64,000 nucleotides of DNA from an uncultured Gammaproteobacteria bacterium (GTDB lineage Bacteria; Patescibacteriota; Microgenomatia; 0-14-0-10-38-17): the NCBI GenBank assembly GCA_964348895.1, contig CAYGEH010000001.1, positions 312,002 to 376,001 of the forward strand, read 5' to 3'. The stretch's first letter is position 1; every line of letters begins with the position of its first letter. The notes beneath the pieces are model-generated. The model did no database searches and was not told the origin of the DNA. It was given only the letters and a program-made list of their open reading frames with translations. Positions 3,489-40,523 of the stretch are shown here, one piece after another. Position numbers and translations under genes: made by a program.

Positions 3489-3626
3489 CAAAAAGGGGGC
3501 AAAAAGCTGGTCAAAAAATAACCAACTAACCAAAGAATAATCACGAATTTTTTTTTCAAAAAAACTACCTCCTCGCTAAATTACAAAAAAAGAACTTATT
3601 TTTACTTTATAAGGCTTATTTGGAGC

Positions 3627-4760
3627 TTAGGGGTTTTGTGGTTCCTGACTTTTTGGGGCAACAATTTGCTCAAGAGCTTTCTTCACTTCAGTTGGACCAG
3701 ACAAGAGTTCTTTTTGCCAAGAAATTAAATTTTTAGCAAATGGTTCTCTTGATCGTTTAAGTAAGGCTCTTAATGAGGCAACTTGGTTTTTGGGTTTACC
3801 AGCAATATGCATTCCCACCCCTTTATCGCCAACAACATTTTTATATCTTTCTTCCTGTCCGCCAATCAATCGAAAAATAAAAAGGGGTAATCCCACTAGC
3901 CCTGCCTCTACCGACATTTGTGCCAAAGAAAAGGCTAAGCCAAAATCGGCGACCGCCATCCACTCGGCCATTTCTTCTTCTGAAAGCCAGTTCAAAAAAC
4001 GAAACATAGGGTCATCACCATAGCTCTCTTTCATTTCTTTCTGAAAACTCTGGTTTTTTCCGCATAGAAAAACAAAAACTACATTGTCGTCTTTAAAAGC
4101 AATCCTTAGGTGTTTTATGTAGGCCTTAGATCTTTTTATCAAACCACTTCCCGCCATCACTAAAATTAAAAGACAGTTTTGTTCGACACCTAGTTTTTCT
4201 CGTAAAGAAGTTTTAATGTTTCCCTGTAAGATCTTTTCCCCCATTTCATAAAAAGCTGGTCTTGCCAAGGGTAGAGTATAAATTAATTGATTCAGGTTTA
4301 CTCCAAACTTAATAGCATCTGCTGTTGCTTGTGGCCAAAGAGCAAAGTAATAATCGGGTTGAGGAGAAGTAAAATAGGTTGCATGAGCAATTGGGTCCAA
4401 AAGCAACATTACTTTAACAAAAGTACTACCCCTAGGTCTGATTAGAGCGTGTGTGGAAATAATCAAATCGGCTTCCATATAGTTGGGAATTACTTGATTT
4501 AGCTTTTTTTCAATTTCTGGAACTAAAGGCTCAATCATTGCCTGAGCCAAAAATGGCCGATTAGAAATCTTAAAAAGAAGCTTGTAAATTTTTGGAACCC
4601 TATGAATCCAGCTAGTCGCCTTCTCGCTTATGCGAGGCAAAACATCATATATTTCGGATTGATAGCCCCATTGTTCCAGCCAATACCGATAGGCTTGAGC
4701 CATCGAAAAGTGCCCCTGTCCAGTTTGACCAGTTAAAATAATTGCCCTCTTTTTTTTCAC
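3627..4760 (-). CDS. glycosyltransferase, GT28 / MGDG-synthase (UgtP/MurG-like) family
   Basis: N-terminal IILTGQTGQGHFSMAQA resembles the MGDG synthase/MurG N-terminal sugar-acceptor domain; size 377 aa consistent. Confidence 0.55.
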   Translation of the reverse strand: MKKKRAIILTGQTGQGHFSMAQAYRYWLEQWGYQSEIYDVLPRISEKATSWIHRVPKIYKLLFKISNRPFLAQAMIEPLVPEIEKKLNQVIPNYMEADLIISTHALIRPRGSTFVKVMLLLDPIAHATYFTSPQPDYYFALWPQATADAIKFGVNLNQLIYTLPLARPAFYEMGEKILQGNIKTSLREKLGVEQNCLLILVMAGSGLIKRSKAYIKHLRIAFKDDNVVFVFLCGKNQSFQKEMKESYGDDPMFRFLNWLSEEEMAEWMAVADFGLAFSLAQMSVEAGLVGLPLFIFRLIGGQEERYKNVVGDKGVGMHIAGKPKNQVASLRALLKRSREPFAKNLISWQKELLSGPTEVKKALEQIVAPKSQEPQNP

Positions 4761-7135: not shown

Positions 7136-8074
7136 TTAACGAATCAATATTTCAGTGAAAACAAACATCGTATACAAAACCAAAAGCACTAGTCCTTCAA
7201 GCCGAGAAATGGTGTTTTTTGTTCGGGCAAAATAATAAAACACTCCTAAGCCAATGGCTAAAAATAAGAGACTGGTTATATAGTTTTTGGCTAAAAGAAC
7301 TGGCTGTCCATACCAAAAAGTCAAGAAGCCCAAAAGAAAGGTATTAAAAGCGGCTGAGCCTACATAGCCACCAAAGGCAACTTGATGTTTACGCATAAAA
7401 ATAGACCTGACAACAAGCGACAACTCAGGCACATTAGTGCCGACAGCAATAAGAATCAAACTTACAAAAAAAGGGGAAACATTTAATAGGCCAGAAAAAT
7501 AAATAGTTTGTTGAACAATAAGTCGACTGGCAACAAAAATAATCATCACTCCAAAAAGTATTTTCAAAAATTCTTTGCCAGCTCTAACGCTATTTCTTTT
7601 GTTGATATTTTGTAGCTTTTCTTTTAAGCTTCGTCTTGATTGAACAATAATAAGAAGAAAACCAAACAAGAGCATCGCAACAACACTGTCTGTTCTTCCA
7701 ATTCTGCCATCCATCGCCAAAATAACCGGTAGGCCAATTACCGCCAAAGAAGCCGGCAAGTTAAACCCTTGAAGCTCAGAACGAAGACGAACCGAGTTTC
7801 CCGCTACCGCCAAAAGTGGCATGACTAACATAAAAAGCACAATAGAAGCACCAATCAGGTTGCCGACATAAATTTCAGGATCATTTTCAAAAATAGCATT
7901 AATGCCGACAGACAGCTCGCCAACAGAAGTAAACAAGCCTAAAATTATAAACGAGACCGTAAAAGAAGAAAATTTAAGCGAGCGGGAGAGTCTTTCCACT
8001 GATTTAATCGCAAGCCCTGAGCCAACCCAAATACCAACAAACGATAATAAATAAACAACAACAGGAAAAGGCAT
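7136..8074 (-). CDS. Ca2+/Na+ antiporter, CaCA (YrbG-like) family
   Basis: Two alpha-repeat signatures GNLIGASIV and GTNVPELSL in a 10-TM-like 312-aa protein. Confidence 0.8.
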   Translation of the reverse strand: MPFPVVVYLLSFVGIWVGSGLAIKSVERLSRSLKFSSFTVSFIILGLFTSVGELSVGINAIFENDPEIYVGNLIGASIVLFMLVMPLLAVAGNSVRLRSELQGFNLPASLAVIGLPVILAMDGRIGRTDSVVAMLLFGFLLIIVQSRRSLKEKLQNINKRNSVRAGKEFLKILFGVMIIFVASRLIVQQTIYFSGLLNVSPFFVSLILIAVGTNVPELSLVVRSIFMRKHQVAFGGYVGSAAFNTFLLGFLTFWYGQPVLLAKNYITSLLFLAIGLGVFYYFARTKNTISRLEGLVLLVLYTMFVFTEILIR

Positions 8075-8299
8075 AAGTCTCTGCTCTCAGTTTAGCAAAA
8101 AAACGCTGTTAATTCACCACCACTTTAGTCCTCTCTTTATGGAAAGACTACGGCAAAAAAAATTTTACTAAAATCATAAGCGAAGAATCTTAAAACTGGG
8201 AAGTAAAAAAACACAACTTAACCAAATAAGGCCTCTTAGTTTGATTGTTAATTTGCGGGCTTCCTAATCATCAAATTACTATACAGCTAGATTTTACCG

Positions 8300-8503
8300 C
8301 TATTTATCGTGATTTTCAACTTTCCTTAAAGTTCTAACATAGAACTTGCCGAGTGAGCGAGCAGCAACAACACGCAGTGAAAACCCAGAAATCATCAAAA
8401 AGATACTAACCCAAGCCAAAAAAGAAGAACCAATGCTGGAAAAATGATAGTAATTTAGTAAAGAAGCAATCAGAATACCAAGGGTGTTAGCAAGAATAAC
8501 CAA
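8300..8503 (-). CDS. short membrane-protein ORF, possibly a truncated gene fragment
   Basis: 67-aa hydrophobic ORF in the AT-rich gap between the antiporter and the R-M island; ends abruptly; weak resemblance to N-terminus of polytopic methyltransferase-type membrane proteins only. Confidence 0.25.
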   Translation of the reverse strand: MVILANTLGILIASLLNYYHFSSIGSSFLAWVSIFLMISGFSLRVVAARSLGKFYVRTLRKVENHDK

Positions 8504-8697
8504 AGCGGGGAGGTTCGGACTCTTTTTATCATATGCTGTTTTATTAAGATCTTTGGCTGAAGAACCAGATCAGATTAACCTTTAAACCACAAAAAAGCCT
8601 GCAATTAAAAGGTAAGCACAAATCGTTGAAAAAGAAATTTGCATGTTGTTTCAAGTATACCTTTTTTCTCTGGTTCTTTGTATAATTTTGTAGAGGT

Positions 8698-8889
8698 ATG
8701 CCGAAGAAAGAAGACGAGTTACCCAAGCTGTTAACTATCAAACAGGCGTCAGAAATCCTAAATGTGCATGTAGAGACTTTGCGCAGATGGGGCAAAAGTG
8801 GGAAATTAAAGGCTGTCAGAGTTAATAAACGAGGCGACAGGCGCTATGATCCCAAAGATATTGAAGCAATACTGAAAAATAAAAAATAA
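8698..8889 (+). CDS. small HTH DNA-binding protein (MerR/excisionase-type helix-turn-helix)
   Basis: LTIKQASEILNVHVETLRRWGKSGKL is a classic excisionase/MerR-type HTH; stop TAA followed 2 nt later by res ATG (translational coupling). Confidence 0.7.
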   Translation: MPKKEDELPKLLTIKQASEILNVHVETLRRWGKSGKLKAVRVNKRGDRRYDPKDIEAILKNKK

Positions 8890-8891
8890 GT

Positions 8892-11477
8892 ATGACCAAT
8901 CTATACCAAAAATTAAAATTAGATGTCGCTAACTGGAGACAGCAAGGTTACTCCTCCTCCTATCCTGCTATTACCACCATCCTCCAGCGCAATCAAGGCA
9001 ACTTTCTAAGAAAGGCACAATTCGAGGCATTAGAGACTTACTGGTATCTCAGGCTGATTAAAAACACTCCCAACATCTTTGATCTCTATAAGGATTACTT
9101 TCCAGGGAAGACCCTCTTTGAAGCCTTTGGATTGAAACACTTGATCGAAAACCTGCCAGAAGACTTAATCACCCCAGAGCTTACCCAGGGAATCCTAAAA
9201 AAAATTGAAACAGATGATGCCTTTATAAAGCAAAATAAATTAGAAGCACTGAGGGAGACACTTACCCTTTCATATCCAAGTTACATTCTGGCATTGGCAA
9301 TGGGAGCGGGCAAAACAATCTTGATGGCTTCAATTATCGCCACCGAGTTTGCGATGGCACTGGAATATCAGGAGGAGGACGGCATCTTCATTAAAAACGC
9401 TCTGGTATTTGCGCCTGGGAAAACCATTTTAGGTGCTTTGAGGGAAATCTCCGATACTCCCTATGATAAGATACTGCCTCCTCGTTTTTATAAATCCTTT
9501 ATCACCAATGTTAAATTCACCTACACCAGAGATGGCGAGAAAGACATTCCCGTTATCCGAGGCAGCTCCTTTAATGTTGTTGTCACCAACACTGAGAAAA
9601 TAAGACTTCAAAAGAACAGCATCCCCAAATCTTTCCTATCTGGGCAGTTAAGGCTTGGGATAGAAGAAGCCAAAGAACTTGTGGCTAATTTAAGGCTACA
9701 GACCATTACTTCATTGCCTCATTTGGCAGTCTTTTCAGACGAAGCCCATCACACCTATGGACAAGAGCTGGCAAGCGATCTTAAACGGGTAAGACAGACC
9801 ATTAACTACATTGCCGAGAAAACCAACCTTCTGGCGGTGGTCAATACCACTGGCACACCATACTACCAAAGACAACTCCTGCGGGATGTCATTTACTGGT
9901 ATGGGCTATCCCAAGGCATCGAAGACGGCATTCTTAAAGAGGTTAGAGGCAACATTATGGCTTATCCTAAGGTCTCCGAGGAAGACTTTGTTATCGATAT
10001 TGTCAAAGATTTCTTCCAAGAATACAAAGATGTCCGAGTTAATAACGGCGAATATGCAAAACTGGCAATCTACTTCCCTCAGGTCGCTGACTTAGAGAAA
10101 GCTAAACCCATTGTGGAGCAAACTCTCATCTCATTAAAAATTGACCCATCAATTGTCCTGCCAGTGCATAACAAGTCAACTGACGAGATCAAAGACCTTT
10201 TTGATAATCGCATCAACGACCATAAATTGCCCTACAGGGTCTTTTTACTCGTCAACAAAGGCACTGAAGGATGGAACTGCCTATCCTTATTCGCCACCGC
10301 TCTGGCAAGGAAACTCACTTCAAGCAACAACTTTGTTTTACAAGCTGCCAGCAGGTGTCTAAGGCAAGTCAACGGCAATACCAAAAAAGCCAAGATTTAC
10401 CTCTCAAAAGACAATGTCTCCATTCTTGATCGGCAGTTGCAAGAAACCTTTGGTGAGGGGCTGGATGATCTCAACAGGGCTTCTACCGACACGGTAACAG
10501 TTAAAGTAACTCTTAGAAAAATTGAATTAGAGCCTTTACTTATCAAAAAGCTCATCCAAAAGATAGTCCCAGAAGACTTGAAAGCTGAAGAAAGTCTAAA
10601 AATCAATAAACCAGGCAAAGAAACGGTCAAATCCTTTGAAAAAACCATTTACTCCATGTCCAAAGCCCAAAGAAAAGGGGTGTTAGTTGAAGTGGGCACT
10701 AAAAAAGGAACGGTAACGGACAGGAAAATCGACCTGTTCCAAGCTGCCGTGGTTCTAGCTCATACTTACCGCTTAGACTCGCTAAAAACTTATAAATTGC
10801 TTCAAGGTTTATACCCAGACGGAGAAATTGGAGCGTTTGAACTGGAACTTATTCGTTCCCAAATAGAAAAACAAACCATGCGCTATAAAGTGGTTAACGA
10901 GACAGTCGAAGAAGCACTTGCCCTAATCAAGCAAAAGGGGTTCGAAGAAGAAATTGTTGACGGTAAAACCTCCTATGTGACCCACATCAGAGTTAACAAA
11001 ACCTCTCTGGAGAAATATGTGCTGGAGCTGAAAAATTACAAGGCAAAGGCTGGGCAGTTACCGCTCTTTGGCTTTCATTACGACCCCTACAATTTTGATT
11101 CAGAAGATGAGCGAGAGTTTTTTGAGAGAATGCTTACCAAACTCGGTGAAGACCCCGATAATGTTGAGGACATTTATTACACAGGCGCAATTAACGATCC
11201 CGCCAGAACTGACTTTATCTTTGAGTATAAAGATGACAAGGGAGACTGGCACAGTTATACCCCCGACTTTTTAATTCGCAAGAAAGACGGCAAGTCCTTA
11301 ATCGTAGAGGTAAAAGCCCCAAAATACAGGATTAAGGAAGCTGAAAAAGAGATGCAAGAGCTGGAAGCGATAAATCCTGATAAAATAAAGTATGAACTCC
11401 TGCTCTTAGAGGAAGGAGAATCAGTATTTGGTAAAGTTGCACCTGTTTTTAACTGGATTTACCAAAAACAAGAATAA
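8892..11477 (+). CDS. res: Type III restriction enzyme, Res subunit (SF2 helicase + PD-(D/E)xK nuclease)
   Basis: Walker A-like LAMGAGKT, DEAH box FSDEAHH, C-terminal YTPDF...LIVEVK nuclease motif; stop abuts mod start (TAA-AT-ATG). Confidence 0.85.
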   Translation: MTNLYQKLKLDVANWRQQGYSSSYPAITTILQRNQGNFLRKAQFEALETYWYLRLIKNTPNIFDLYKDYFPGKTLFEAFGLKHLIENLPEDLITPELTQGILKKIETDDAFIKQNKLEALRETLTLSYPSYILALAMGAGKTILMASIIATEFAMALEYQEEDGIFIKNALVFAPGKTILGALREISDTPYDKILPPRFYKSFITNVKFTYTRDGEKDIPVIRGSSFNVVVTNTEKIRLQKNSIPKSFLSGQLRLGIEEAKELVANLRLQTITSLPHLAVFSDEAHHTYGQELASDLKRVRQTINYIAEKTNLLAVVNTTGTPYYQRQLLRDVIYWYGLSQGIEDGILKEVRGNIMAYPKVSEEDFVIDIVKDFFQEYKDVRVNNGEYAKLAIYFPQVADLEKAKPIVEQTLISLKIDPSIVLPVHNKSTDEIKDLFDNRINDHKLPYRVFLLVNKGTEGWNCLSLFATALARKLTSSNNFVLQAASRCLRQVNGNTKKAKIYLSKDNVSILDRQLQETFGEGLDDLNRASTDTVTVKVTLRKIELEPLLIKKLIQKIVPEDLKAEESLKINKPGKETVKSFEKTIYSMSKAQRKGVLVEVGTKKGTVTDRKIDLFQAAVVLAHTYRLDSLKTYKLLQGLYPDGEIGAFELELIRSQIEKQTMRYKVVNETVEEALALIKQKGFEEEIVDGKTSYVTHIRVNKTSLEKYVLELKNYKAKAGQLPLFGFHYDPYNFDSEDEREFFERMLTKLGEDPDNVEDIYYTGAINDPARTDFIFEYKDDKGDWHSYTPDFLIRKKDGKSLIVEVKAPKYRIKEAEKEMQELEAINPDKIKYELLLLEEGESVFGKVAPVFNWIYQKQE

Positions 11478-11479
11478 AT

Positions 11480-13327
11480 ATGACAAACGATAAAACAAAT
11501 AAAGAATTAACCAAGTCTCTCTCTGACGAGATGAAGATTGAGGCTAAGATAAGCAAGATAAAGATTGAAACGCCAAAAGGTAGACCTCTACTCCATTGGG
11601 TCAACAAACACCCGTTAGAATATGTCACAGGCTTCCCGACACAACTAACAGAGGTTTTTGACCCCCAGAAGAAAGACAAATTCCCAGAAACTCCTAAATA
11701 CAATGAGCTTGAAAAAAACTGGCACAATCTCTTATTTCATGGTGATAATAAAGAAGTTTTAGCCACACTCCTGGAGCAGGGTTTTAGAGGCAAGGTTGAC
11801 CTTATTTACATCGATCCCCCGTTTGCCAGTAACAAAGACTACATAAGGAAAGTTGAGCTGCGAGGATTGAAAGATTTAGGAAAGATTGAAGAAGATAGCG
11901 AGTCTATCATCCAGCAGACGATGTATGAAGATATTTGGAAAAGGGACGAATACTTCCAATTCATGTATGAGCGGTTAATTTTACTGAAGGAATTGCTGGC
12001 AGAAACAGGCAATATTTATGTCCACCTTGATTTCAGGATGGTTCACTACATTAAAACGATAATGGACGAGATTTTTGGAGAAGACAATCTACAAAACGAA
12101 GTTATTTGGGCTTATAGGACGGGTGGATCAAGTAAGGGGAACTGGAGTCAGAAACACGACACAATTCTTTATTATTCTAAGTCGGACAAACCAACCTTTA
12201 ATTTACAGAAAGAAAAGGCTTACACAAAAAGTAAGTCGAGAAAGCCTGGTGTAATTGATTACGGTGGCGGAACTGCTGAATTTTTTGAAGACGAATACGG
12301 CGTTTACAATTTAGTTCACGCCAGAGATGTATGGGATATTCCTTATATCAATTCACAATCCGATGAACGCCAAGACTACGCAACTCAAAAACCAGAAGAA
12401 TTGTTGGATAAAATTATCAAGGCTTCTTCAGATAAAAATGACTTAATTCTCGACTGTTTCGTGGGTTCTGGCACAACTTGTGCTGTAGCTCAAAAGTTAG
12501 GGAGACGCTGGATTGGTGTAGATGTAAATAAGGGGGCAATTCAAGTTACCAGTAAAAGACTACAGAAGATTATCAAAGATCAAAAGGAAACCAAATACCC
12601 CACCTTCGTAATTTACAAGGTTAATAACTACGATTTGAGAATCCTGAAGACTGAGGTTAAGGAACTGGCTATCCAGCAATATGGAATTACTAAGGTCAAA
12701 ACGGACACTTTCTTTGACGGTTTGCGGGATAGTGGTGAGCTGGTTAAGATTATAGATTTCTATCATCCCTTAACACTACTTGACCTACAGCTGATCGTTG
12801 ATGAGCTTAACAAGCGCCCAGACGAGGATAGGGATGTGGTGGTCATCTCACTGGGCAGGGAGACAAAGGTTGATGCTTGGATTGAGGAATGGAATAAAAA
12901 ACAGCCTTATAAAGACACCAGAAGCAAGAAACGCATGCGCCAGTTTATTATCTTCGACCTCAAAGACAAAAACTTTGTGAGCTATGAGCCATCAAAAACG
13001 GAGATAGAAATTAAGAGGATGGGGAAAGGCAAAGTGAAGATTAAGATTACATCCTTTATCTCACCCACTATCATTAAACGCTTGGAGCTTGAACCAGGGC
13101 TCTTGCAAAAGAAAATCCCAGATTTCAGGTCGATGATCGATGTGGTGCTGATTGACACAGACTACAACGGTGAAGTATTTAAGATTGGTTTCTCGGATGT
13201 TCCCGAAAAACAGAAAGATTTAGTTAAGGGCGAATACGAACTTGAAGTAAGCGAAAAGCCAACCAAAGTGGCAGTCAAAGTCATTGACATGTTAGGAGAA
13301 GAAGTTCTGGTCACCAAAGAGGTGTAA
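11480..13327 (+). CDS. mod: Type III restriction-modification Mod subunit (beta-class N6-adenine/N4-cytosine DNA methyltransferase)
   Basis: Motif IV IDPPF (aa ~110) precedes motif I DCFVGSGTT (aa ~325) = beta-class order typical of Type III Mod. Confidence 0.85.
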   Translation: MTNDKTNKELTKSLSDEMKIEAKISKIKIETPKGRPLLHWVNKHPLEYVTGFPTQLTEVFDPQKKDKFPETPKYNELEKNWHNLLFHGDNKEVLATLLEQGFRGKVDLIYIDPPFASNKDYIRKVELRGLKDLGKIEEDSESIIQQTMYEDIWKRDEYFQFMYERLILLKELLAETGNIYVHLDFRMVHYIKTIMDEIFGEDNLQNEVIWAYRTGGSSKGNWSQKHDTILYYSKSDKPTFNLQKEKAYTKSKSRKPGVIDYGGGTAEFFEDEYGVYNLVHARDVWDIPYINSQSDERQDYATQKPEELLDKIIKASSDKNDLILDCFVGSGTTCAVAQKLGRRWIGVDVNKGAIQVTSKRLQKIIKDQKETKYPTFVIYKVNNYDLRILKTEVKELAIQQYGITKVKTDTFFDGLRDSGELVKIIDFYHPLTLLDLQLIVDELNKRPDEDRDVVVISLGRETKVDAWIEEWNKKQPYKDTRSKKRMRQFIIFDLKDKNFVSYEPSKTEIEIKRMGKGKVKIKITSFISPTIIKRLELEPGLLQKKIPDFRSMIDVVLIDTDYNGEVFKIGFSDVPEKQKDLVKGEYELEVSEKPTKVAVKVIDMLGEEVLVTKEV

Positions 13328-13357
13328 TTAGATATTCCTCTCAAAGATTACTGATTT

Positions 13358-13383
13358 AACTGCCCTTAATTGGGCAGTTTTTG
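13358..13383 (+). terminator. rho-independent terminator after mod
   Basis: AACTGCCC-ttaatt-GGGCAGTT 8-bp perfect stem followed by T-run (TTTTTG), 30 bp after the mod stop. Confidence 0.6.
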
Positions 13384-13395
13384 TAGAAAAATAGC

Positions 13396-14001
13396 ATGAT
13401 CGATATAAAAAACTTTGATCCTAAAAAAGACCTTGAAGAATTTCTGAAACCCTATGGTGAGAAGGCGCTATTAGATTTTAGAGATAAAGTCACTCAGGAC
13501 TTGAAAAGAATTTCTGAGAGGCATAAAAGCCTGCTAAAAGATTCTGAAAACTTCAGACTGCAGTTAATTACCATTGCTGGTGGAACAATTTCCATCTTTG
13601 TTGCCCTACAAGGAAACTTTGATATTTCACTGCTGACAAAACTGGGTTTTGCTGGTTTGGGCGTATCTTTGATATTGGGTGTAGCTTCGCTGTTTTTTGG
13701 TCTTGAATCAAAGCGATTTAAAATTCAATTAGAGGAAAGCAGTAATTTATTTCAGCAGAAACAGGCGCTTGATTTTCTTGAAAAGCTTTATCGTCTCGAT
13801 ATCAGCTCAGAAAAAGAGATACTTTCCTGCTCAGAGAGTTTTAAGAAAGAATATGATGCCGACCTCAAAAAAAGACAGAAACAGATAAACAAAATTCTGA
13901 ATTTTATACACCTGGACGCTCAAAAAGTTGAAAACGGACAGTTAATTTTATTTATGTTAGGGATAATCTTTATCGTTTCGGGATTGTTCCTGCGTGTCTA
14001 A
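13396..14001 (+). CDS. hypothetical membrane protein (2 central TM helices + C-terminal TM, coiled-coil flanks); first gene of 3-gene cassette
   Basis: Hydrophobic segments LITIAGGTISIFVAL, GFAGLGVSLILGVASLFFGL, LILFMLGIIFIVSGLFL; 201 aa; no homology recognised. Confidence 0.55.
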   Translation: MIDIKNFDPKKDLEEFLKPYGEKALLDFRDKVTQDLKRISERHKSLLKDSENFRLQLITIAGGTISIFVALQGNFDISLLTKLGFAGLGVSLILGVASLFFGLESKRFKIQLEESSNLFQQKQALDFLEKLYRLDISSEKEILSCSESFKKEYDADLKKRQKQINKILNFIHLDAQKVENGQLILFMLGIIFIVSGLFLRV

Positions 14002-14032
14002 TTAAACAATTAAAGCAGCCTGGTAAATAACT

Positions 14033-14746
14033 ATGAAAAACATAAATGATCTTCTAACTGAACTGGCTAAGGGTGCAACTCACATCATCAGCAAGCCAGA
14101 AACAATAAAGGAGCTTCAGAAGCAAGGGGTAAAGTTTGATGAACCCCAAAGATTGACTCCTGAACAAGCTGTCAAAAGCATATTTTCCCAAAGAAAAGCA
14201 GTTGCCTTAACCAACATAGCCAAATTCACTTCTCCGCCAGATATTGCTATCCCTACAATTGGTTTTCTTTATGATGAAATTCGGGAGTGTATTCTATTCG
14301 GACTTTATGGAGCTGCAATTTCTTTAAGTGCCGTTTTGGTGGAATTTTCACTCAAACACGCCATTATCAAGAAAAAGTGTGGAGACGCCTATGATAAAAA
14401 CGAATGGGATCGAATCGAAAATGTAGAACTTAACCCAACCATTAAAGAAGCCAAACAATTAGGCGTTATTGATAGAGAAACAGAAAAAAGGCTGATCAGC
14501 TTCAAAAACACTATCAGGAATCCCTATTTACATTACAACATAAAGAAAATCACAAAAAATGTGGCTATAAGAAAGGTGAAGCGGTTCGATATTAAAACGA
14601 GAGAAGTGAAAGAAGTCGACCTAGATGCGAAGGATAATCCTGTTGTTTGGGGATTTGCGAAAAGATTTGTTGATAGGGAGATGGTTTTTCAAGTCTTTGG
14701 ATTTGCAGACAATTTAGTAAAATATCTTTTTTCAAATAGCACATAA
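14033..14746 (+). CDS. hypothetical protein with RNxxxH (HEPN-like) motif
   Basis: RNPYLH at residues 162-167 (nt 14516-14533) matches the Rx4-6H HEPN RNase signature; 237 aa; 3-bp gap to next gene. Confidence 0.5.
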   Translation: MKNINDLLTELAKGATHIISKPETIKELQKQGVKFDEPQRLTPEQAVKSIFSQRKAVALTNIAKFTSPPDIAIPTIGFLYDEIRECILFGLYGAAISLSAVLVEFSLKHAIIKKKCGDAYDKNEWDRIENVELNPTIKEAKQLGVIDRETEKRLISFKNTIRNPYLHYNIKKITKNVAIRKVKRFDIKTREVKEVDLDAKDNPVVWGFAKRFVDREMVFQVFGFADNLVKYLFSNST

Positions 14747-14749
14747 GTT

Positions 14750-16390
14750 ATGAGCAAAAATAAGAAAATCGGCAAGAAAACAAACACGCCCTTCATAAGA
14801 TTCAGACACGGAACGAGGTTAGAGATAGACCCTAATGTTAGAGAATCGATAAAGGAATTTTTGGAGAATTATAAGCAGCAAGGTGAACAAACATTTCGTA
14901 GTCTCATCAAAGATATTGCTGATGGTTCTGGCTGGGGCATACACCCAGATTCTACCTGGCACAGAGCGATTCAAGAATTGTTTGAGAGATATCGAGACTG
15001 GGAATCACCATCAAGAGATAATGCTATCGCTGCTGTAATTGAAATACTGGAGATTTTGGCTAGAGGCACTGAACCTCAGACAACTTGGGATGAAGTCGTT
15101 AAAAAGCTAGAAAACAAGTTAGAAGTCCTAAGTGGTTGGGAATACTCTCACATTAAAAAGTTTGGTGAGCAGGATGGGATTAAAAGGGACGCAGATGACT
15201 ACTACATGGAAAAAGGCGGTCAGAGAGTCGATGTGATAGGCACAAAAACTTTGGAAGAAAATAAGTTTGATTACATTCAGGACGACATCAACAGAGATTA
15301 CGGTAATATCGGGTCTTTACTCAAATTGGCGGAGATGCTTTTTATATCTTTGGACTTTGTAGCCAATCCACAGCACTATCGTAAGGAACTTTCTTACGCC
15401 ATGAGCGAAGCGGATAGTAATACTTGGTTTCTACATGGAAGATGGCGAGTAGAAACATCATACGAGTTAATTCCCATTAGCTGGCATCCACGCAGCTGTT
15501 ATACCGATATTGATTGGTTAAAAAGCGAGGCGATAACCATTCTTGCTAGAAAATGCAGAGTTGAGCAAGAAGCGATCCCAAGAATACTCTCAACTGAGGA
15601 TAGTCTTTCAAGGTGGCAGGAGGCATTTCAAGGGTATGCCCTTCAATATGAGACAGCTTATGAAACAGACATAATTCTAGGAAGTGAGCCGTTTGGATCT
15701 TCTCCAGAGGAGCTTTACATTGATTTTGAAGGAAGGAAACTGAGGTGGATTAACGGCACAAAGTATGTTTACCCATCCCTGATAATTCCAGCAAAAGACG
15801 ATACCTACGAAGAAGAACGAGAAATTGCTCGACGGTTTGTCAGTGCGCTAGTGTTTTCGGAAAAGTATCCCATTAGAGAGATTACGAACGCTGCGTGTCC
15901 GAAAAGATTTGCTCCGCTTATTCGCCAGCCACGATCAAATATCTTTCTTGGTATTTCAACAGATATTCTTGCTTTACTTGGTCAACTGAGGACAGAGAGA
16001 CAGTGGCAAGCACTTTCGTATTACAAGGAAGCGGTAAACTCGGAAAGCATTTATTACCAGTTTTTATGTTATTACAACACAGTCAAATTGGCATTTCTCA
16101 ATGCAAACAATGAGGAAGATACGAATCGAGTCGACCAGTGGATAAATAGCCAAGCACCAAACTTAAATATAACTCCATTACTTACAAGGCTAACTAGCCA
16201 GGGAACGACACTAGCAGCTTATTTGAGACACGAAGGAGGGAGGAATGCTATTGCACATGTTGGGATGCTAAGGGGTAATCACCCAACCATTGTTCCAGAT
16301 AATCCAGATGATCGTCGCAGGATTCAAGAAGTGTTGCCGATTGTTAGAGAATTGGCAACGAAAGTAATAGGAGACGGAATGGTCAGTTAA
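14750..16390 (+). CDS. hypothetical protein with C-terminal RNxxxH (HEPN-like) motif
   Basis: RNAIAH at residues 498-503 (nt 16241-16258) preceded by a helical Y-rich segment (YYKEAVNSESIYYQFLCYYNTVKLAF); 546 aa; no other family recognised. Confidence 0.5.
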   Translation: MSKNKKIGKKTNTPFIRFRHGTRLEIDPNVRESIKEFLENYKQQGEQTFRSLIKDIADGSGWGIHPDSTWHRAIQELFERYRDWESPSRDNAIAAVIEILEILARGTEPQTTWDEVVKKLENKLEVLSGWEYSHIKKFGEQDGIKRDADDYYMEKGGQRVDVIGTKTLEENKFDYIQDDINRDYGNIGSLLKLAEMLFISLDFVANPQHYRKELSYAMSEADSNTWFLHGRWRVETSYELIPISWHPRSCYTDIDWLKSEAITILARKCRVEQEAIPRILSTEDSLSRWQEAFQGYALQYETAYETDIILGSEPFGSSPEELYIDFEGRKLRWINGTKYVYPSLIIPAKDDTYEEEREIARRFVSALVFSEKYPIREITNAACPKRFAPLIRQPRSNIFLGISTDILALLGQLRTERQWQALSYYKEAVNSESIYYQFLCYYNTVKLAFLNANNEEDTNRVDQWINSQAPNLNITPLLTRLTSQGTTLAAYLRHEGGRNAIAHVGMLRGNHPTIVPDNPDDRRRIQEVLPIVRELATKVIGDGMVS

Positions 16391-16549
16391 GTGTTAACCT
16401 TGTGTGCCCCTGTGTTGACTTGTGTGGGGCTTTCGTGCCTGGGGTGGATAAGTTACCTTAATTTAGCTTCAGAAGCCTCGTTGGGGATTTGTTGCAGGAT
16501 CTGTAGTGGCTCCGGGAGGACTCCTTAACCTCCATACTTATTTGGGCTA

Positions 16550-16891
16550 GCCTGGAGAATTACTAAGGATAAGTATGAGGAAAAAACGAAAGAGTATCGG
16601 GTAAAACAGAAGGAAATTAGCGGTAAGATTGCCAAACTAAATTATGCTGACGAGGAATACTATTTAACCTCGGAATACCTACTAAAACTGGCTTCTAATG
16701 CAGGAAAATTGTTTGAGAGTTCTGGAGTTCACGAAAAACGGCTACTTTTAAAGATGACACTTCAGAACTTGGAGTTAAATGACAAAATAACCCGATTTAA
16801 ATGGATAAAACCGTTTGACAAAATAGCTTTTTACACCTCTCGTCAGCCTTGGCTCCTCGGGGAGGATTTGAACCTCCGACCAACCGCTTAA
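16550..16891 (+). pseudogene. C-terminal remnant of a large serine recombinase, reading into tRNA-Asn
   Basis: Open frame ...YRVKQKEISGKIAKLNYADEEYYLTSEYLLKLASNAGKLFESSGVHEKRLLLKMTLQNLELNDKITRFKWIKPFDKI... has the same architecture as the C-terminal coiled-coil/tail of the intact recombinase at 28024-29520; no N-terminal catalytic domain upstream (stop at 16547-16549). Confidence 0.45.
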
Positions 16892-16925
16892 CAGGCGGGC
16901 GCTCTACCAACTGAGCTACCGAGGA
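16851..16925 (-). tRNA. tRNA-Asn (anticodon GTT)
   Basis: Cloverleaf TCCTCGG-TA-GCTC..GAGC-..-anticodon loop CTGTTAA-..-GGTTCAAATCC T-arm-CCGAGGA-G-CCA encoded on minus strand. Confidence 0.9.
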
Positions 16926-16995
16926 ATATTTTTTAATATCAATAAACGACTAAATTATAACATGTAGCAGACAGGAAAGGCCTTAGCTAAACCGC

Positions 16996-18165
16996 TTAAT
17001 CTAGATAGTCTTGAAGTTTTTTCCGCCTTGAGGGGTGTTTTAGTTTTCTTAAAGCTTTTGATTCAATTTGCCTGATTCGCTCTCTGGTAACACCAAAGTG
17101 TTTTCCCACCTCTTCCAGGGTTCGGGGTCGATCGCCATCTAGGGCAAACCTTAACCTTAAAACCTTAGCTTCTCGATCGCTTAAGCTCGATAAAACTTCA
17201 TCAACATTTTCTTTCAACAACTCTCTGGCTGCCTCTTCGTAGGGAGAAAGACGGGAGTCGTCTTCAATGAAATCACCTAAAACCGAATCTCCCTCCTCAC
17301 CCACTGGCGCCTGTAAAGATGCGGTATCTTGAGAAATCTTAAAAACAGTTTTTACCTTAGAAACAGGCAGTCCTAATTCTTCGGCAATCTCTTCTGCTAC
17401 TGGTTCTCGGCTTAATTTCTGAGTCAATCGACGACTGGTTCGATAAACTTTATTAATTGTTTCCACCATATGCACTGGGATTCTAATTGTTCGAGCCTGA
17501 TCAGCAATCGCCCGAGTAATAGCCTGGCGAATCCACCAAGTGGCATAAGTCGAAAACTTAAAGCCTCGCCGCCAATCATATTTTTCAGTTGCCCGAATTA
17601 AACCCTTATTGCCCTCTTGAATTAGATCTAAAAAGGATAGCCCTCGGCGAAGATACTTTTTGGCAATTGAGACTACTAGACGAAGATTGGCCTCCGTTAA
17701 TTTTTTCTTAGCCTCAATCGACCCCGCTTCAACTTTTTTTGCTAACTCAATTTCTTCACTCGCCTTTAAAAGGCTAATTCTGCCAATTTCTTTTAGGTAA
17801 TTTCTAACCGGATCAGTAATTTCTCCAGTCTGGGCGACTATTTTTTCAATCTGGGCGGCAAATTTAGCAAAGTCTTCTTGATTGGATTCTTCTAGGTCAA
17901 GCGACTCGAAAACATCCACACCCCTTTTGATTGCCCAATAATAAAACTCATCTAACTCCTTAACTCTTTCCTCAGCATCGGGAAAAACAATCAAAACTTC
18001 CGCTTGAGTTAAAAAGCCCTCGTCTTCACCTTTTTTAAGCAACTGTTTTGCTTCAAGGGAAAGAAAGGTTTTTTTCTTAGACGAATCTTTGTGGTCAACC
18101 TGACTTTTAGTTGAGGCTACTTTAGGCGAAGAAGCGGTTTTTTTAGAAAGACTTTTTTTGGCCAT
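16996..18165 (-). CDS. rpoD: RNA polymerase sigma-70 factor RpoD
   Basis: Regions 2-4 conserved: [54 protein letters not shown]; [26 protein letters not shown]. Confidence 0.95.
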
Positions 18166-27988: not shown

Positions 27989-28077
27989 GGAGGAGTCGCT
28001 TAGAGGCCCATAGCACAGGTTTGCTAAACCTGCGAGCCGTATGGCTCACGTGGGTTCGAATCCCACCTCCTCCGCCA
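27989..28077 (+). tRNA. tRNA-Ser (anticodon GCT), type II
   Basis: GGAGGAG acceptor, anticodon loop TTGCTAA, long variable arm; 3' 45 nt identical to tRNA-Ser(CGA); 3' half overlapped by the recombinase ORF end. Confidence 0.85.
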
Positions 28078-29520
28078 GTTAGAAAAAGAAGGGTTTGGCT
28101 CGCCCTCTACGAGGGCTCGCCAGCCGATTTTAGGCGCAAAATTGAATTTTTTGTCTTTCAAAATAAAGTTCGAGCCGACATTTTTTAGAAATTGACGGAT
28201 TTCCGTTTTGTCGCTTTGCGACAAAAGAATTTTGGCTTGGCTACTCTGTAAAATCATTTCTTTCATCGGTTCGAGCCAATTATTTCCCGCTTGTTCAAAA
28301 TCTCTGATTTTCTGCTCAATTTCCAGTTTTTCGTTGAGCAGTTTTTGTTTCTTGGCTTGATATTCTTCAAGCGTCAAAGCCCCGCCAGTAATGTAGAGGT
28401 CTAACAATTTTTCAATTTTCTGCTCGGCTTCCGTTTTTTGCCGGTGGAGATTTTGAACAAAAATTCTACTTTCATTTTTGGCTTGTTTTTTTTCTTTGTC
28501 TAACTCGGCAAGCATATTTTTAGCCCACTTGTACGGCAAAGAAACTTTTTGAATAAAATCTCTCATCTGTTCAACAAGATTTTCCTCTCGCAGATATTTT
28601 TCATTACAAGTTTGCTTTTTCTTGGTGCACCGATAATAGTTATGTCCTTTTTGAGTTTCGGCAGTAATGAAGCAACCGCAAGACCCGCAACGCATTAAAC
28701 CGGAAAAAGCAAACTCGTGCTTTCGTTTCCTCTTTTTCTTGCCCCGGTTATTCATTACTTGTTGAACAGAATCAAAAAGTTTCTTGGAAATAATTGGCTC
28801 GTGGATTCCCTGATAAATTTCACCGTTGAATTTGAAAACGCCGTAGTAAAAAGGATTTTTTAACATTCGCTGGACACAAGAACAGGAAAGAACATTGCCT
28901 TTATAGCTGTCTATTTCAGTATCAGCCAAAAACTGCTTTATGGCCTTTAGCGTATATTCGCCGGTGGCATAAAGTTCAAAACATTTTCTAATTAACGGTG
29001 CTTTTTCTTTGTCAGTATCAATAGCTTTCGTCTTATGATTATTGAGATAGCCAAGCGGCGCAAAGCCAGGCCAAATTCCTTTTCGCAGTTTTTGGCGGTG
29101 TCCTCGTTTGATATTTTCAGAAAGGTTATCAATGTAGTATTTACTTTGGCCAAAGGCAATGTTCATCATGAATTTTCCTTGCGGTGTGCTATCAAACCAA
29201 AATGTCGGGAATTTCAAATCCTTAATCTTTCCTGTGTCCAGCAGGTAAATAATCTTTCCGCCATCAATAGAATTTCTCGCCAATCTGTCTGGATGCCAAG
29301 CCAAAATTCCGCTGGCTTCGCCAGCGCAAATCCGATCAAGCATTTCTCCGAAAATTTTTCGGCCAGGTTCTTTGGCGGTTTGCGCCTCGCATAGCGAGGC
29401 GACGATTTCAAGTTTTTCTTTGGCGGCAAATTCTTTTAATTCAGAAAGCTGGGATTCAATACTTAAAATTTGACGTTCCTCGCTGTCCGTTGATTTTCGG
29501 GTGTAAATAAAATACTTCAT
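28024..29520 (-). CDS. large serine recombinase (resolvase/invertase catalytic domain + recombinase/zinc-ribbon + coiled-coil)
   Basis: N-terminus MKYFIYTRKSTDSEERQ (catalytic Ser motif YxRxST), CxxC...C..C zinc-ribbon region (CGSCGCF...YYRC), long coiled-coil tail; last ~50 codons translate IR-A and the tRNA-Ser 3' half (…WRRRWDSNPREPYGSQV). Confidence 0.85.
   Translation of the reverse strand: MKYFIYTRKSTDSEERQILSIESQLSELKEFAAKEKLEIVASLCEAQTAKEPGRKIFGEMLDRICAGEASGILAWHPDRLARNSIDGGKIIYLLDTGKIKDLKFPTFWFDSTPQGKFMMNIAFGQSKYYIDNLSENIKRGHRQKLRKGIWPGFAPLGYLNNHKTKAIDTDKEKAPLIRKCFELYATGEYTLKAIKQFLADTEIDSYKGNVLSCSCVQRMLKNPFYYGVFKFNGEIYQGIHEPIISKKLFDSVQQVMNNRGKKKRKRKHEFAFSGLMRCGSCGCFITAETQKGHNYYRCTKKKQTCNEKYLREENLVEQMRDFIQKVSLPYKWAKNMLAELDKEKKQAKNESRIFVQNLHRQKTEAEQKIEKLLDLYITGGALTLEEYQAKKQKLLNEKLEIEQKIRDFEQAGNNWLEPMKEMILQSSQAKILLSQSDKTEIRQFLKNVGSNFILKDKKFNFAPKIGWRALVEGEPNPSFSNWRRRWDSNPREPYGSQV
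28072..28158. repeat. IR-A left copy (87 bp), begins inside the tRNA-Ser(GCT) 3' end (CCGCCAGTT...)
   Basis: Reverse complement matches 29578-29664 with 1 mismatch. Confidence 0.8.
28159..28186. repeat. IR-C left copy (28 bp), contiguous with IR-A
   Basis: CAAAATAAAGTTCGAGCCGACATTTTTT; perfect reverse-complement copy at 29793-29820. Confidence 0.75.
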
Positions 29521-39728: not shown

Positions 39729-40523
39729 ATGAATAACTTCTCAAGAAATATAGCAAAAACCGTTGAGGAAAGCGTAGTAATGACAATGGACGGTTCCGAC
39801 AAAGAAATCTTCCCATTTTTACCCTACATACTTCAAGATCTTTGGGAGATTGGTTCAGACCCAGAGGTTATTATCAAATTGATTAAAAAACATTCCTTTA
39901 ATTACAATAACTTAAGGGTTCTTGACTTGGGTTGCGGAAAGGGGGCGGTTTCCATAAAAGTTGCGTGCGAATTTGGTTGTTCCTGCTATGGAATTGACGC
40001 AGTGTCTGAATTTATTTCTGATGCTCAGCAAAAAGCCGTTGAGTATAGCGTAGATCATTTATGTAAATATGAGATAGGAGATATTAGGGAGAAAGTGAAA
40101 GAACTGGGGGTATATGAAATCATAATTCTTGGGTCGATTGGGCCAGTTTTTGGAAATTGCTTTGCGACATTGATGGCCTTGTCAAAATGCTTAAGCGACT
40201 CGGGAATAATAATCATAGATAACGGTTATATTGAAGACAATGTCAGCTATACACATCCGTTATACTCCAAAAAACAAACAATTCTTCAACAAATAAACTC
40301 GGCGGAAATGAAATTAATAGAGAACGACATATTTAATCGCAACAAAATCAAACATTCCAACGATTTTATTTTTCATAATTTGAGAAAAAGGTGTCTGGAG
40401 CTAATTGATAAATATCCAAAAAAAAGAAACTTGTTTGAAGACTATATTAGAAAACAAGCAGAAGAGAATGGTGTGCTTGAAAATAAAATAATATGCACAA
40501 CAATGGTTATAAGAAGAAATTAA
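39729..40523 (+). CDS. class I SAM-dependent methyltransferase
   Basis: Motif I VLDLGCGKGAVS; 264 aa. Confidence 0.7.
   Translation: MNNFSRNIAKTVEESVVMTMDGSDKEIFPFLPYILQDLWEIGSDPEVIIKLIKKHSFNYNNLRVLDLGCGKGAVSIKVACEFGCSCYGIDAVSEFISDAQQKAVEYSVDHLCKYEIGDIREKVKELGVYEIIILGSIGPVFGNCFATLMALSKCLSDSGIIIIDNGYIEDNVSYTHPLYSKKQTILQQINSAEMKLIENDIFNRNKIKHSNDFIFHNLRKRCLELIDKYPKKRNLFEDYIRKQAEENGVLENKIICTTMVIRRN

Follow-up and report, generated by a model that had tools for sequence, protein, structure and literature searches.

Tightly packed genes behind a Type III restriction-modification pair of a patescibacterial genome appear to be independently accreted cargo of a decayed integrative island

This report concerns three tightly packed genes, here called A (201 aa), B (237 aa) and C (546 aa), that lie directly behind a Type III restriction-modification (R-M) pair on a 64,000-nucleotide stretch of contig CAYGEH010000001.1 (positions 312,002 to 376,001 of the forward strand; assembly GCA_964348895.1, GTDB lineage Patescibacteriota; Microgenomatia), referred to below as the window. 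We consider it rather probable that the interval from ~8650 to 16856 of the window is a decayed integrative island, and that its cargo was assembled by accretion of independent defence-type modules and does not constitute one system. An initial annotation, made from the letters of the window, had proposed that A, B and C form a transcription unit of their own encoding a single novel module. The three open reading frames (ORFs), their coordinates on the + strand and the gaps of 31 and 3 bp between them proved correct. The single-module proposal did not survive comparison with related loci: the triple is repeated at none of the loci examined, C is absent from five collinear relatives, and A and B occur separately.

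Five related islands (L008, L009, L041, L042 and L049; loci are cited by L numbers) are collinear with the window across Res-Mod-A-B at 82-93% nucleotide identity, and three of them (L009, L042 and L049) also share the helix-turn-helix (HTH) gene. Nucleotide homology to these five ends at 14745-14751, on the stop codon of B, and resumes at 16373-16421. The content of the intervening slot is C in the window, an HNH gene plus a 519-aa gene in L008 and L042, an unannotated insert of similar size in L041, and, in L009, genes for proteins of 334 and 123 aa together with a 277-aa short MauJ protein whose gene has a 3′ end DNA-homologous to that of C; in L049, nothing precedes the tRNAs. Since the slot holds different genes from one genome to another, C occupies a variable cargo slot, and of the tests for a conserved unit this comparison is the plainest.

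Across 23 genome loci of B, about 10 of C and about 14 of A, the A-B-C triple is not found again. B stands without A or C in 21 of its 23 loci, Res-Mod-A accompanies it in only two, both from close Woesebacteria relatives, and the long form of C in none. Elsewhere, its neighbours are other methylases, a UvrD helicase, a kinase with a Nudix protein, an AriA/PtuA-like ATPase and housekeeping genes; a methylase is adjacent in five of the 23 loci, other DNA methylases lie upstream of B in L021, L022 and L028, and a DNA polymerase III tau-like gene lies beside it in L016. C homologs are solitary in L001, L002 and L036-L040, carry an N-terminal HTH_17 fusion in two proteins (P0006 and P0012), and adjoin tyrosine or serine recombinases, ParA or Fic; the homolog in L005 is preceded by an HTH_17 gene, a 73-aa gene and a gene whose 413-aa product has a borderline match to DUF4145.

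The claim that A, B and C form their own transcription unit behind a rho-independent terminator fared no better. A hairpin with a T-run is indeed present between Mod and A (CTGCCC-TTAATT-GGGCAG, then TTTTT), with a stem of 8 bp once the flanking pairs are included by folding. It was missed by a consensus terminator scan, probably as extension of the stem consumes part of the T-run, and close relatives keep it, with no covariation, while in L033 and L043 it has degraded. Between the T-run and the ATG of A there are just 13 nt, and a sigma-70 consensus scan detected no promoter-like site in this spacer, with the reservation that patescibacterial promoters may differ from that consensus; at other loci, the R-M gene overlaps the start of A or runs right up to it. 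Given the short spacer and the lack of a promoter-like site, A, and probably B and C, would be transcribed from upstream of the hairpin, by read-through or under attenuation and not as an independent unit.

B is, as modelled, a HEPN-fold protein. Its AlphaFold model (predicted local distance difference test score, pLDDT, 91.9; predicted template modelling score, pTM, 0.86) is an alpha-helical up-and-down bundle of HEPN type, in which the RNPYLH motif, found where it had been reported (residues 162-167), sits at the end of helix 148-166 and is followed by a beta-hairpin (178-198) and a long last helix, while the ~70 N-terminal residues form extra helices. With R162, the polar N163 directly after it and H167, the motif has the Rx4-6H pattern of HEPN proteins, and R162, N163, L166, H167, Y168 and N169 are invariant in 39 B-family sequences down to 45% identity. 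The earlier assignment of B as a HEPN protein is thus upheld by both its fold and its invariant R-N-x3-H. At least 143 homologs were retrieved, those named being all patescibacterial; most genome loci of B are metagenome-assembled genomes (MAGs) of Patescibacteria, and a few lie in MAGs that bear the label Gammaproteobacteria, Burkholderiaceae or Blastocatellia. Sequence searches with B returned nothing significant in Pfam, PADLOC, NCBIfam, PHROGs or the PDB, nor was any Pfam domain found in its homologs: B is a HEPN family missed by current profile libraries. There is no sequence-level match to the single-gene HEPN abortive-infection (Abi) and defence proteins (AbiV, HepS and the AbiD/AbiF class) or to the minimal domains of HEPN-MNT pairs. 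Compared with these proteins and domains, B adds the ~70-aa N-terminal helical region and the beta-hairpin inserted after the motif helix and before the last one, and, in contrast to HEPN-MNT pairs, it has no MNT partner; Pfam detected no nucleotidyltransferase domain in A, B or C, nor in the scanned subset of neighbours of B and C.

In C, the RNAIAH motif described behind a Tyr-rich stretch (SYYKEAVNSESIYYQFLCYYN) was confirmed at residues 498-503, and the view that C carries a catalytic-type motif is borne out by the conservation of this Rx4H within a recognised Pfam domain, MauJ. The PF17419 profile scores 61.6 bits on C (cut-off 28) over its full length of 116 positions, and 40 of 40 sampled C-family domains match it as well (best E 6e-31). 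C has 18 close homologs, and a search of 1.84 billion representatives yielded 338 distant ones, which comprise ~58 full-length forms (~530 aa), many short forms (~260-280 aa) matching C residues ~290-545, and forms of ~420 aa with the module at the N-terminus. R-[C/N/D]-A-[I/V]-A-H occurs at the equivalent place in most of ~150 representatives, whether long, short or ~420-aa, and among 58 aligned full-length sequences (57 homologs and C), R498 is conserved in 94% and H503 in 98%. The polar residues conserved above 85% in the C-terminal half fall in the MauJ domain (E427, S433, Y436, R498, H503 and D517), whereas the N-terminal region conserves mainly tryptophan (W70, W113, W130, W232, W245, W256 and W333), a distribution that suggests a sensing or structural N-terminal part joined to a C-terminal active site. 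A DGSGWGIHPDSTW motif in the N-terminal region was considered as an active site and rejected, as conservation of this stretch in the deep family is limited to W70.

MauJ is named as a methylamine utilisation protein, and its function is unknown. The short members of the C family have the size expected of MauJ, but C has an extra Trp-rich N-terminal region of ~285 residues, no mau (methylamine-utilisation) gene was identified among C neighbours, and C sits on mobile islands; the name MauJ is probably misleading. A HEPN fold is plausible for the motif region of C. Alignment of the MauJ-like domain with the B family by hhalign was not significant (E 0.1-0.15), and it placed the motifs and their flanking helices in register. 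Beyond MauJ, C has no significant match in Pfam, PADLOC, NCBIfam, PHROGs or PDB sequences. No literature linking MauJ/PF17419 to HEPN was found, the sole co-mention being an unrelated grapevine study, and MauJ is absent from the 2013 HEPN census (PMC3710099).

The motif by itself was also measured against chance. RNxxxH occurs three times in the 53 large ORFs of the window (16,854 aa), against 0.5 expected. The third occurrence, RNKIKH, is in a 264-aa ORF (39729-40523, + strand) that bears an S-adenosylmethionine (SAM)-methyltransferase-like VLDLGCG motif. This ORF was rejected as a further HEPN candidate, given its methyltransferase-like motif and its lack of a match to the hidden Markov models (HMMs) of either the B family or the MauJ-like domain of C, and its RNxxxH looks like a chance occurrence. 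The motif alone is therefore weak evidence, and it is conservation among homologs that carries weight.

Gene A, by its neighbourhood, belongs with the R-M enzyme. Among its homologs (n = 29), a methylase-bearing R-M gene lies directly 5′ of A in every contig with upstream sequence, and this enzyme is of three types: a Type III Mod in the window, in the five collinear relatives and in the divergent L033, L034 and L043, where Mod is only 54% identical to that of the window and A occurs without B; a 1058-aa Type ISP enzyme, the stop of which overlaps the start of A, in L031, L032, L047, L044 and L048; and, in L046, an enzyme of another, Type IIG-like kind (1092 aa). The start of A overlaps or abuts the stop of the enzyme in L031 and L046. 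Only the close Type III relatives have B as the next gene after A; otherwise, nothing or an unrelated 259-aa protein comes next. As a side observation, a 258-aa A homolog from a Type ISP island (P0154; L044, 2311-2379) has a tail that shares 78% identity with the C-terminal 23 residues of the Type III Mod and looks like a recombination scar left by an A cassette moving between R-M types.

Hydropathy agrees with the description of A as a membrane protein with three transmembrane (TM) helices: 19-residue Kyte-Doolittle windows exceed 1.5 from start positions 53-57, 75-87 and 177-183, and the segment that links TM2 to TM3 is helical and polar. The alignment reveals conserved polar and glycine residues along the TM1-TM2 hairpin (N52, Q56, T59, G62, G63, T64, Q72, G84, S91, G95 and S98). 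A had no significant match in Pfam, PADLOC, NCBIfam, PHROGs or PDB sequence searches. In its small size, its TM hairpin with conserved polar and glycine residues, its flanking helices and its extra C-terminal TM helix, A resembles the two-TM SLATT effector domains reportedly described by Burroughs and colleagues in 2015. The NCBIfam SLATT_1 model, however, reaches only 11.7 bits on A (E 0.19) against a cut-off of 41, there is no Pfam SLATT match, and weak SLATT_1 matches over the TM hairpin were seen in three of 17 family members (best E 0.085). No SMODS, SLOG or other nucleotide-signalling gene was identified beside A in the loci examined; the constant partner of A is instead the methylase-bearing R-M enzyme. 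A pore-forming role for A is a guess based on this architecture.

The features of the island are collected in Table 1. The setting had been described as a defence island, and a Type III R-M pair beside a HEPN-fold protein on a mobile-type island agrees with that description. DNA homology with related islands begins at ~8649-8677, just 5′ of the HTH_17 gene, and the right end is a tRNA-Asn gene. The start-less remnant that ends at this tRNA has no Pfam match of its own, and the 113-aa L001 ORF to which it is related matches genes annotated as ‘recombinase family protein’ (tblastn, 1e-5); the remnant appears to derive from the integrase of the very island on which the R-M genes, A, B and C lie. 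Intact serine recombinases are found in the sister islands L005, L031 and L046, of which L005 reads HTH_17 ... C ... serine recombinase, tRNA-Ser, and L031 and L046 read R-M enzyme, A, 259-aa gene, HTH_36, serine recombinase. At the head of the island of the window stands an HTH_17 protein 71% identical to the one (3561-3773) that heads the C-containing island L005, and in two lineages (P0006 and P0012) this domain is fused directly to a C homolog; the recurrence suggests either a functional link between the HTH protein and C or an ancestral minimal island made of HTH_17, C and a recombinase.

Table 1. Coordinates of the features of the island, in positions of the window.
Feature	Coordinates	Strand	Evidence
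HTH_17/MerR-type small DNA-binding protein, first gene of the island	8698..8889	+	Pfam HTH_17 5e-13
Type III-like Res, helicase with C-terminal nuclease-like region	8892..11477	+	Pfam ResIII 1e-6, TnsA-like endonuclease 1.7e-5, PADLOC REase_III 5.5e-5
Type III methyltransferase (Mod)	11480..13327	+	Pfam N6_N4_Mtase 1.2e-50, PADLOC MTase_III 1e-71
GC-rich hairpin with T-run in the Mod-A spacer, terminator- or attenuator-like	13360..13382	+	read from sequence, folded
Gene A, 201 aa, three hydrophobic helices, R-M-linked accessory	13396..14001	+	hydropathy, alignment, neighbourhood
Gene B, 237 aa, stand-alone HEPN-fold protein (predicted) of a family without Pfam model	14033..14746	+	
RNPYLH motif of B (R162-H167), predicted catalytic Rx4H	14516..14533	+	conservation, model
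Gene C, 546 aa, Trp-rich N-terminal region and C-terminal MauJ-type module, variable-slot cargo	14750..16390	+	
MauJ domain of C (residues 421-540), candidate HEPN-like	16010..16369	+	PF17419 1.7e-16
RNAIAH motif of C (R498-H503)	16241..16258	+	conserved in family
Conserved non-coding block, right edge of the cargo slot	16419..16501	+	homology with L008, L009, L041, L042
Serine-recombinase 3′ remnant, start-less, ends at tRNA	16529..16856	+	70% aa identity to 113-aa L001 ORF
tRNA-Asn(GTT), right end of the island	16850..16925	-	ARAGORN; Rfam tRNA 70.8 bits

At the right edge of the cargo slot, a block of ~80 nt (…CTTGTGTGGGGCTTTCGTGCCTGGGGTGG…GCTTCAGAAGCCTCGTTGGGGATTTGTTGCAG) is 77-81% conserved in four related islands; Rfam models run on 8000-17500 matched only the tRNA and left this block unmatched, and its candidate roles are those of a recombination site, a small RNA or a regulatory element. 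An ORF at 16709-16891 was rejected as a gene, since it is the tail of the recombinase remnant running into the antisense strand of tRNA-Asn. About 11 kb away, an intact 498-aa serine recombinase (28024-29520, - strand) that is 33-36% identical to those of L005 and L031 suggests that the window contains a further integrative element.

The Type III R-M pair reported upstream of A is confirmed by adjacent Mod and Res helicase-nuclease genes that were both matched by Pfam and PADLOC. Their order here, res-mod, is the reverse of the textbook Type III order. In the window, the two genes are spaced by 2 nt (11477-11480), and extra genes are inserted at this place in relatives, coding for a 284-aa protein in L008 (2439-3293), a DUF3800 protein in L009 (2659-3435) and proteins of 205 and 106 aa in L033 (4146-5138); the R-M operon has, at the Res-Mod junction, a variable slot of its own, the second of the island. 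A break in nucleotide homology, seen with all close relatives, also lies in the middle of Mod (~12104-12383, ~250-280 bp) and may reflect an exchanged target-recognition domain and hence another methylation specificity.

Under the preferred reading of independent cargo, the Type III R-M pair and A would make up one module, with A probably expressed by read-through from the R-M operon and working alongside the R-M enzyme at the membrane. In HEPN proteins, the active site is built jointly by the two subunits of a dimer; B would accordingly dimerise into a composite Rx4H site and act as a metal-independent RNase through R162, N163 and H167, switched on by infection or stress as in single-gene HEPN abortive-infection proteins. 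C would be self-contained cargo in which the Trp-rich N-terminus senses or regulates and the MauJ domain (R498/H503) serves as a HEPN-like effector that, by analogy with B, may cleave RNA.

Several observations weigh against this reading. The 23 B loci and about 10 C loci sampled are drawn from much larger families. A, B and C are tightly packed and co-directional, so that in this genome they are probably co-transcribed and their products could interact here. At other loci, six of eight co-directional genes placed right after B carry an Rx4H motif, against ~1.9 motifs expected, and in L009 a short MauJ protein is encoded two genes after B; this hints at a preference of B for a second HEPN-like neighbour, the alternative being plain clustering in defence islands. 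The motifs of these genes include RGVIEH, RCGMTH, RNILAH, RNQIHH and RLLIAH, and their hosts (L012 6711-7628, L014 2211-2798, L021 3298-3855, L022 6719-7252, L011 5018-6406 and L015 6734-7432) are mutually unrelated; Pfam and PADLOC assigned no family to them save for the L011 gene, an AriA/PtuA/GajA-like ABC ATPase with Rx4H near its C-terminus. As for C, its whole-protein model has a pLDDT of 67, falling below 50 at the motif (residues 496-510), and neither Foldseek comparison of the model with the PDB nor a PDB profile search gave a match. Finally, B and C have no matches in viral contigs and none in PADLOC models, so their role in defence is deduced from context only.

Much of this would favour A, B and C as one novel abortive-infection or toxin module, composed of two HEPN RNases and a membrane effector or anchor transcribed apart from the R-M genes and working perhaps through a B-C heterodimer or a cascade: the genes are packed on the same strand, B is a HEPN protein, C has a conserved Rx4H, HEPN sites form between two subunits, Rx4H genes often come directly after B elsewhere, and L009 has a short MauJ gene near B. 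Nonetheless, none of the other loci examined repeats the triple, the five collinear relatives lack C, B lacks both A and C at 21 of 23 loci, A occurs without B behind three R-M types, and the hairpin leaves no room for a promoter, none having been detected. Such a module is very improbable, and non-co-occurrence has already largely refuted it.

A layered defence of the PrrC kind, in which A and/or B would be restrained by the Type III R-M complex and freed when a phage disables restriction, would instead make Res-Mod-A(-B) the functional unit and C alone unrelated cargo. A follows a methylase-bearing R-M enzyme of any of three types without exception, with overlap or abutment in L031 and L046, Res-Mod-A-B is collinear in five relatives, B lies downstream of other DNA methylases at three further loci, and the PrrC/EcoprrI paradigm is established, at least 16 HEPN clades being linked to R-M systems (PMC3710099). 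Like PrrC/EcoprrI and the other R-M-linked HEPN nucleases of that census, B lies right behind R-M genes in a defence island, and a logic of first and second lines of defence is plausible for its locus. Unlike PrrC, B has no ABC-ATPase regulatory domain, by Pfam or in its model, and lies outside a Type I system; nor does it keep its linkage to R-M, a methylase being beside it in five of 23 loci and housekeeping neighbours in others such as L016, and A occurs without it. On balance, this arrangement is unlikely, though less so than the three-gene module. B and/or C could also have no part in defence and be addiction toxins of the island, or non-catalytic HEPN-like regulators that bind RNA or ligands, like MtlR. 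Their location on recombinase-bearing islands, the fusion of some C homologs to an HTH_17 DNA-binding domain and the lack of PADLOC or viral matches are in keeping with such roles, but the strict arginine, polar residue and histidine of B and the R and H of the MauJ family are the catalytic HEPN pattern, whereas non-catalytic HEPN domains usually lose the motif (PMC3710099), and no antitoxin-like partner is conserved beside B or C. We regard this possibility, too, as a slim one.

Going beyond the independent-cargo reading, a tentative and rather doubtful proposal is that the MauJ family as a whole is a large unrecognised clade of HEPN-type RNases and that A, conserved directly behind Type III, Type ISP and Type IIG-like enzymes, is a pore-forming second-line effector physically coupled to them. 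The long MauJ form, a Trp-rich sensor joined to a MauJ domain, may then be a single-gene abortive-infection or addiction module on recombinase-bearing islands. In a weaker variant, B would be the common partner of diverse second HEPN-like proteins encoded just downstream.

Patescibacteria, also called the Candidate Phyla Radiation (CPR), have tiny genomes with few recognised defence systems, so each uncharacterised defence-type gene found in them helps to fill a gap. HEPN genes beside R-M genes are an established and well-described theme (PMC3710099), and the general theme of this setting is thus not new; what is new here is a HEPN family that profiles fail to detect (B), a likely reinterpretation of MauJ and a membrane protein (A) that shadows R-M enzymes. 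Close spacing of motif-bearing genes in a single genome, as the locus also illustrates, does not count as evidence for a system; here, nucleotide comparison with relatives resolves A, B and C into independent cargo. If the proposed coupling holds true, A and its R-M enzymes would represent a layered defence in Patescibacteria, in which restriction-modification is combined with a membrane effector.

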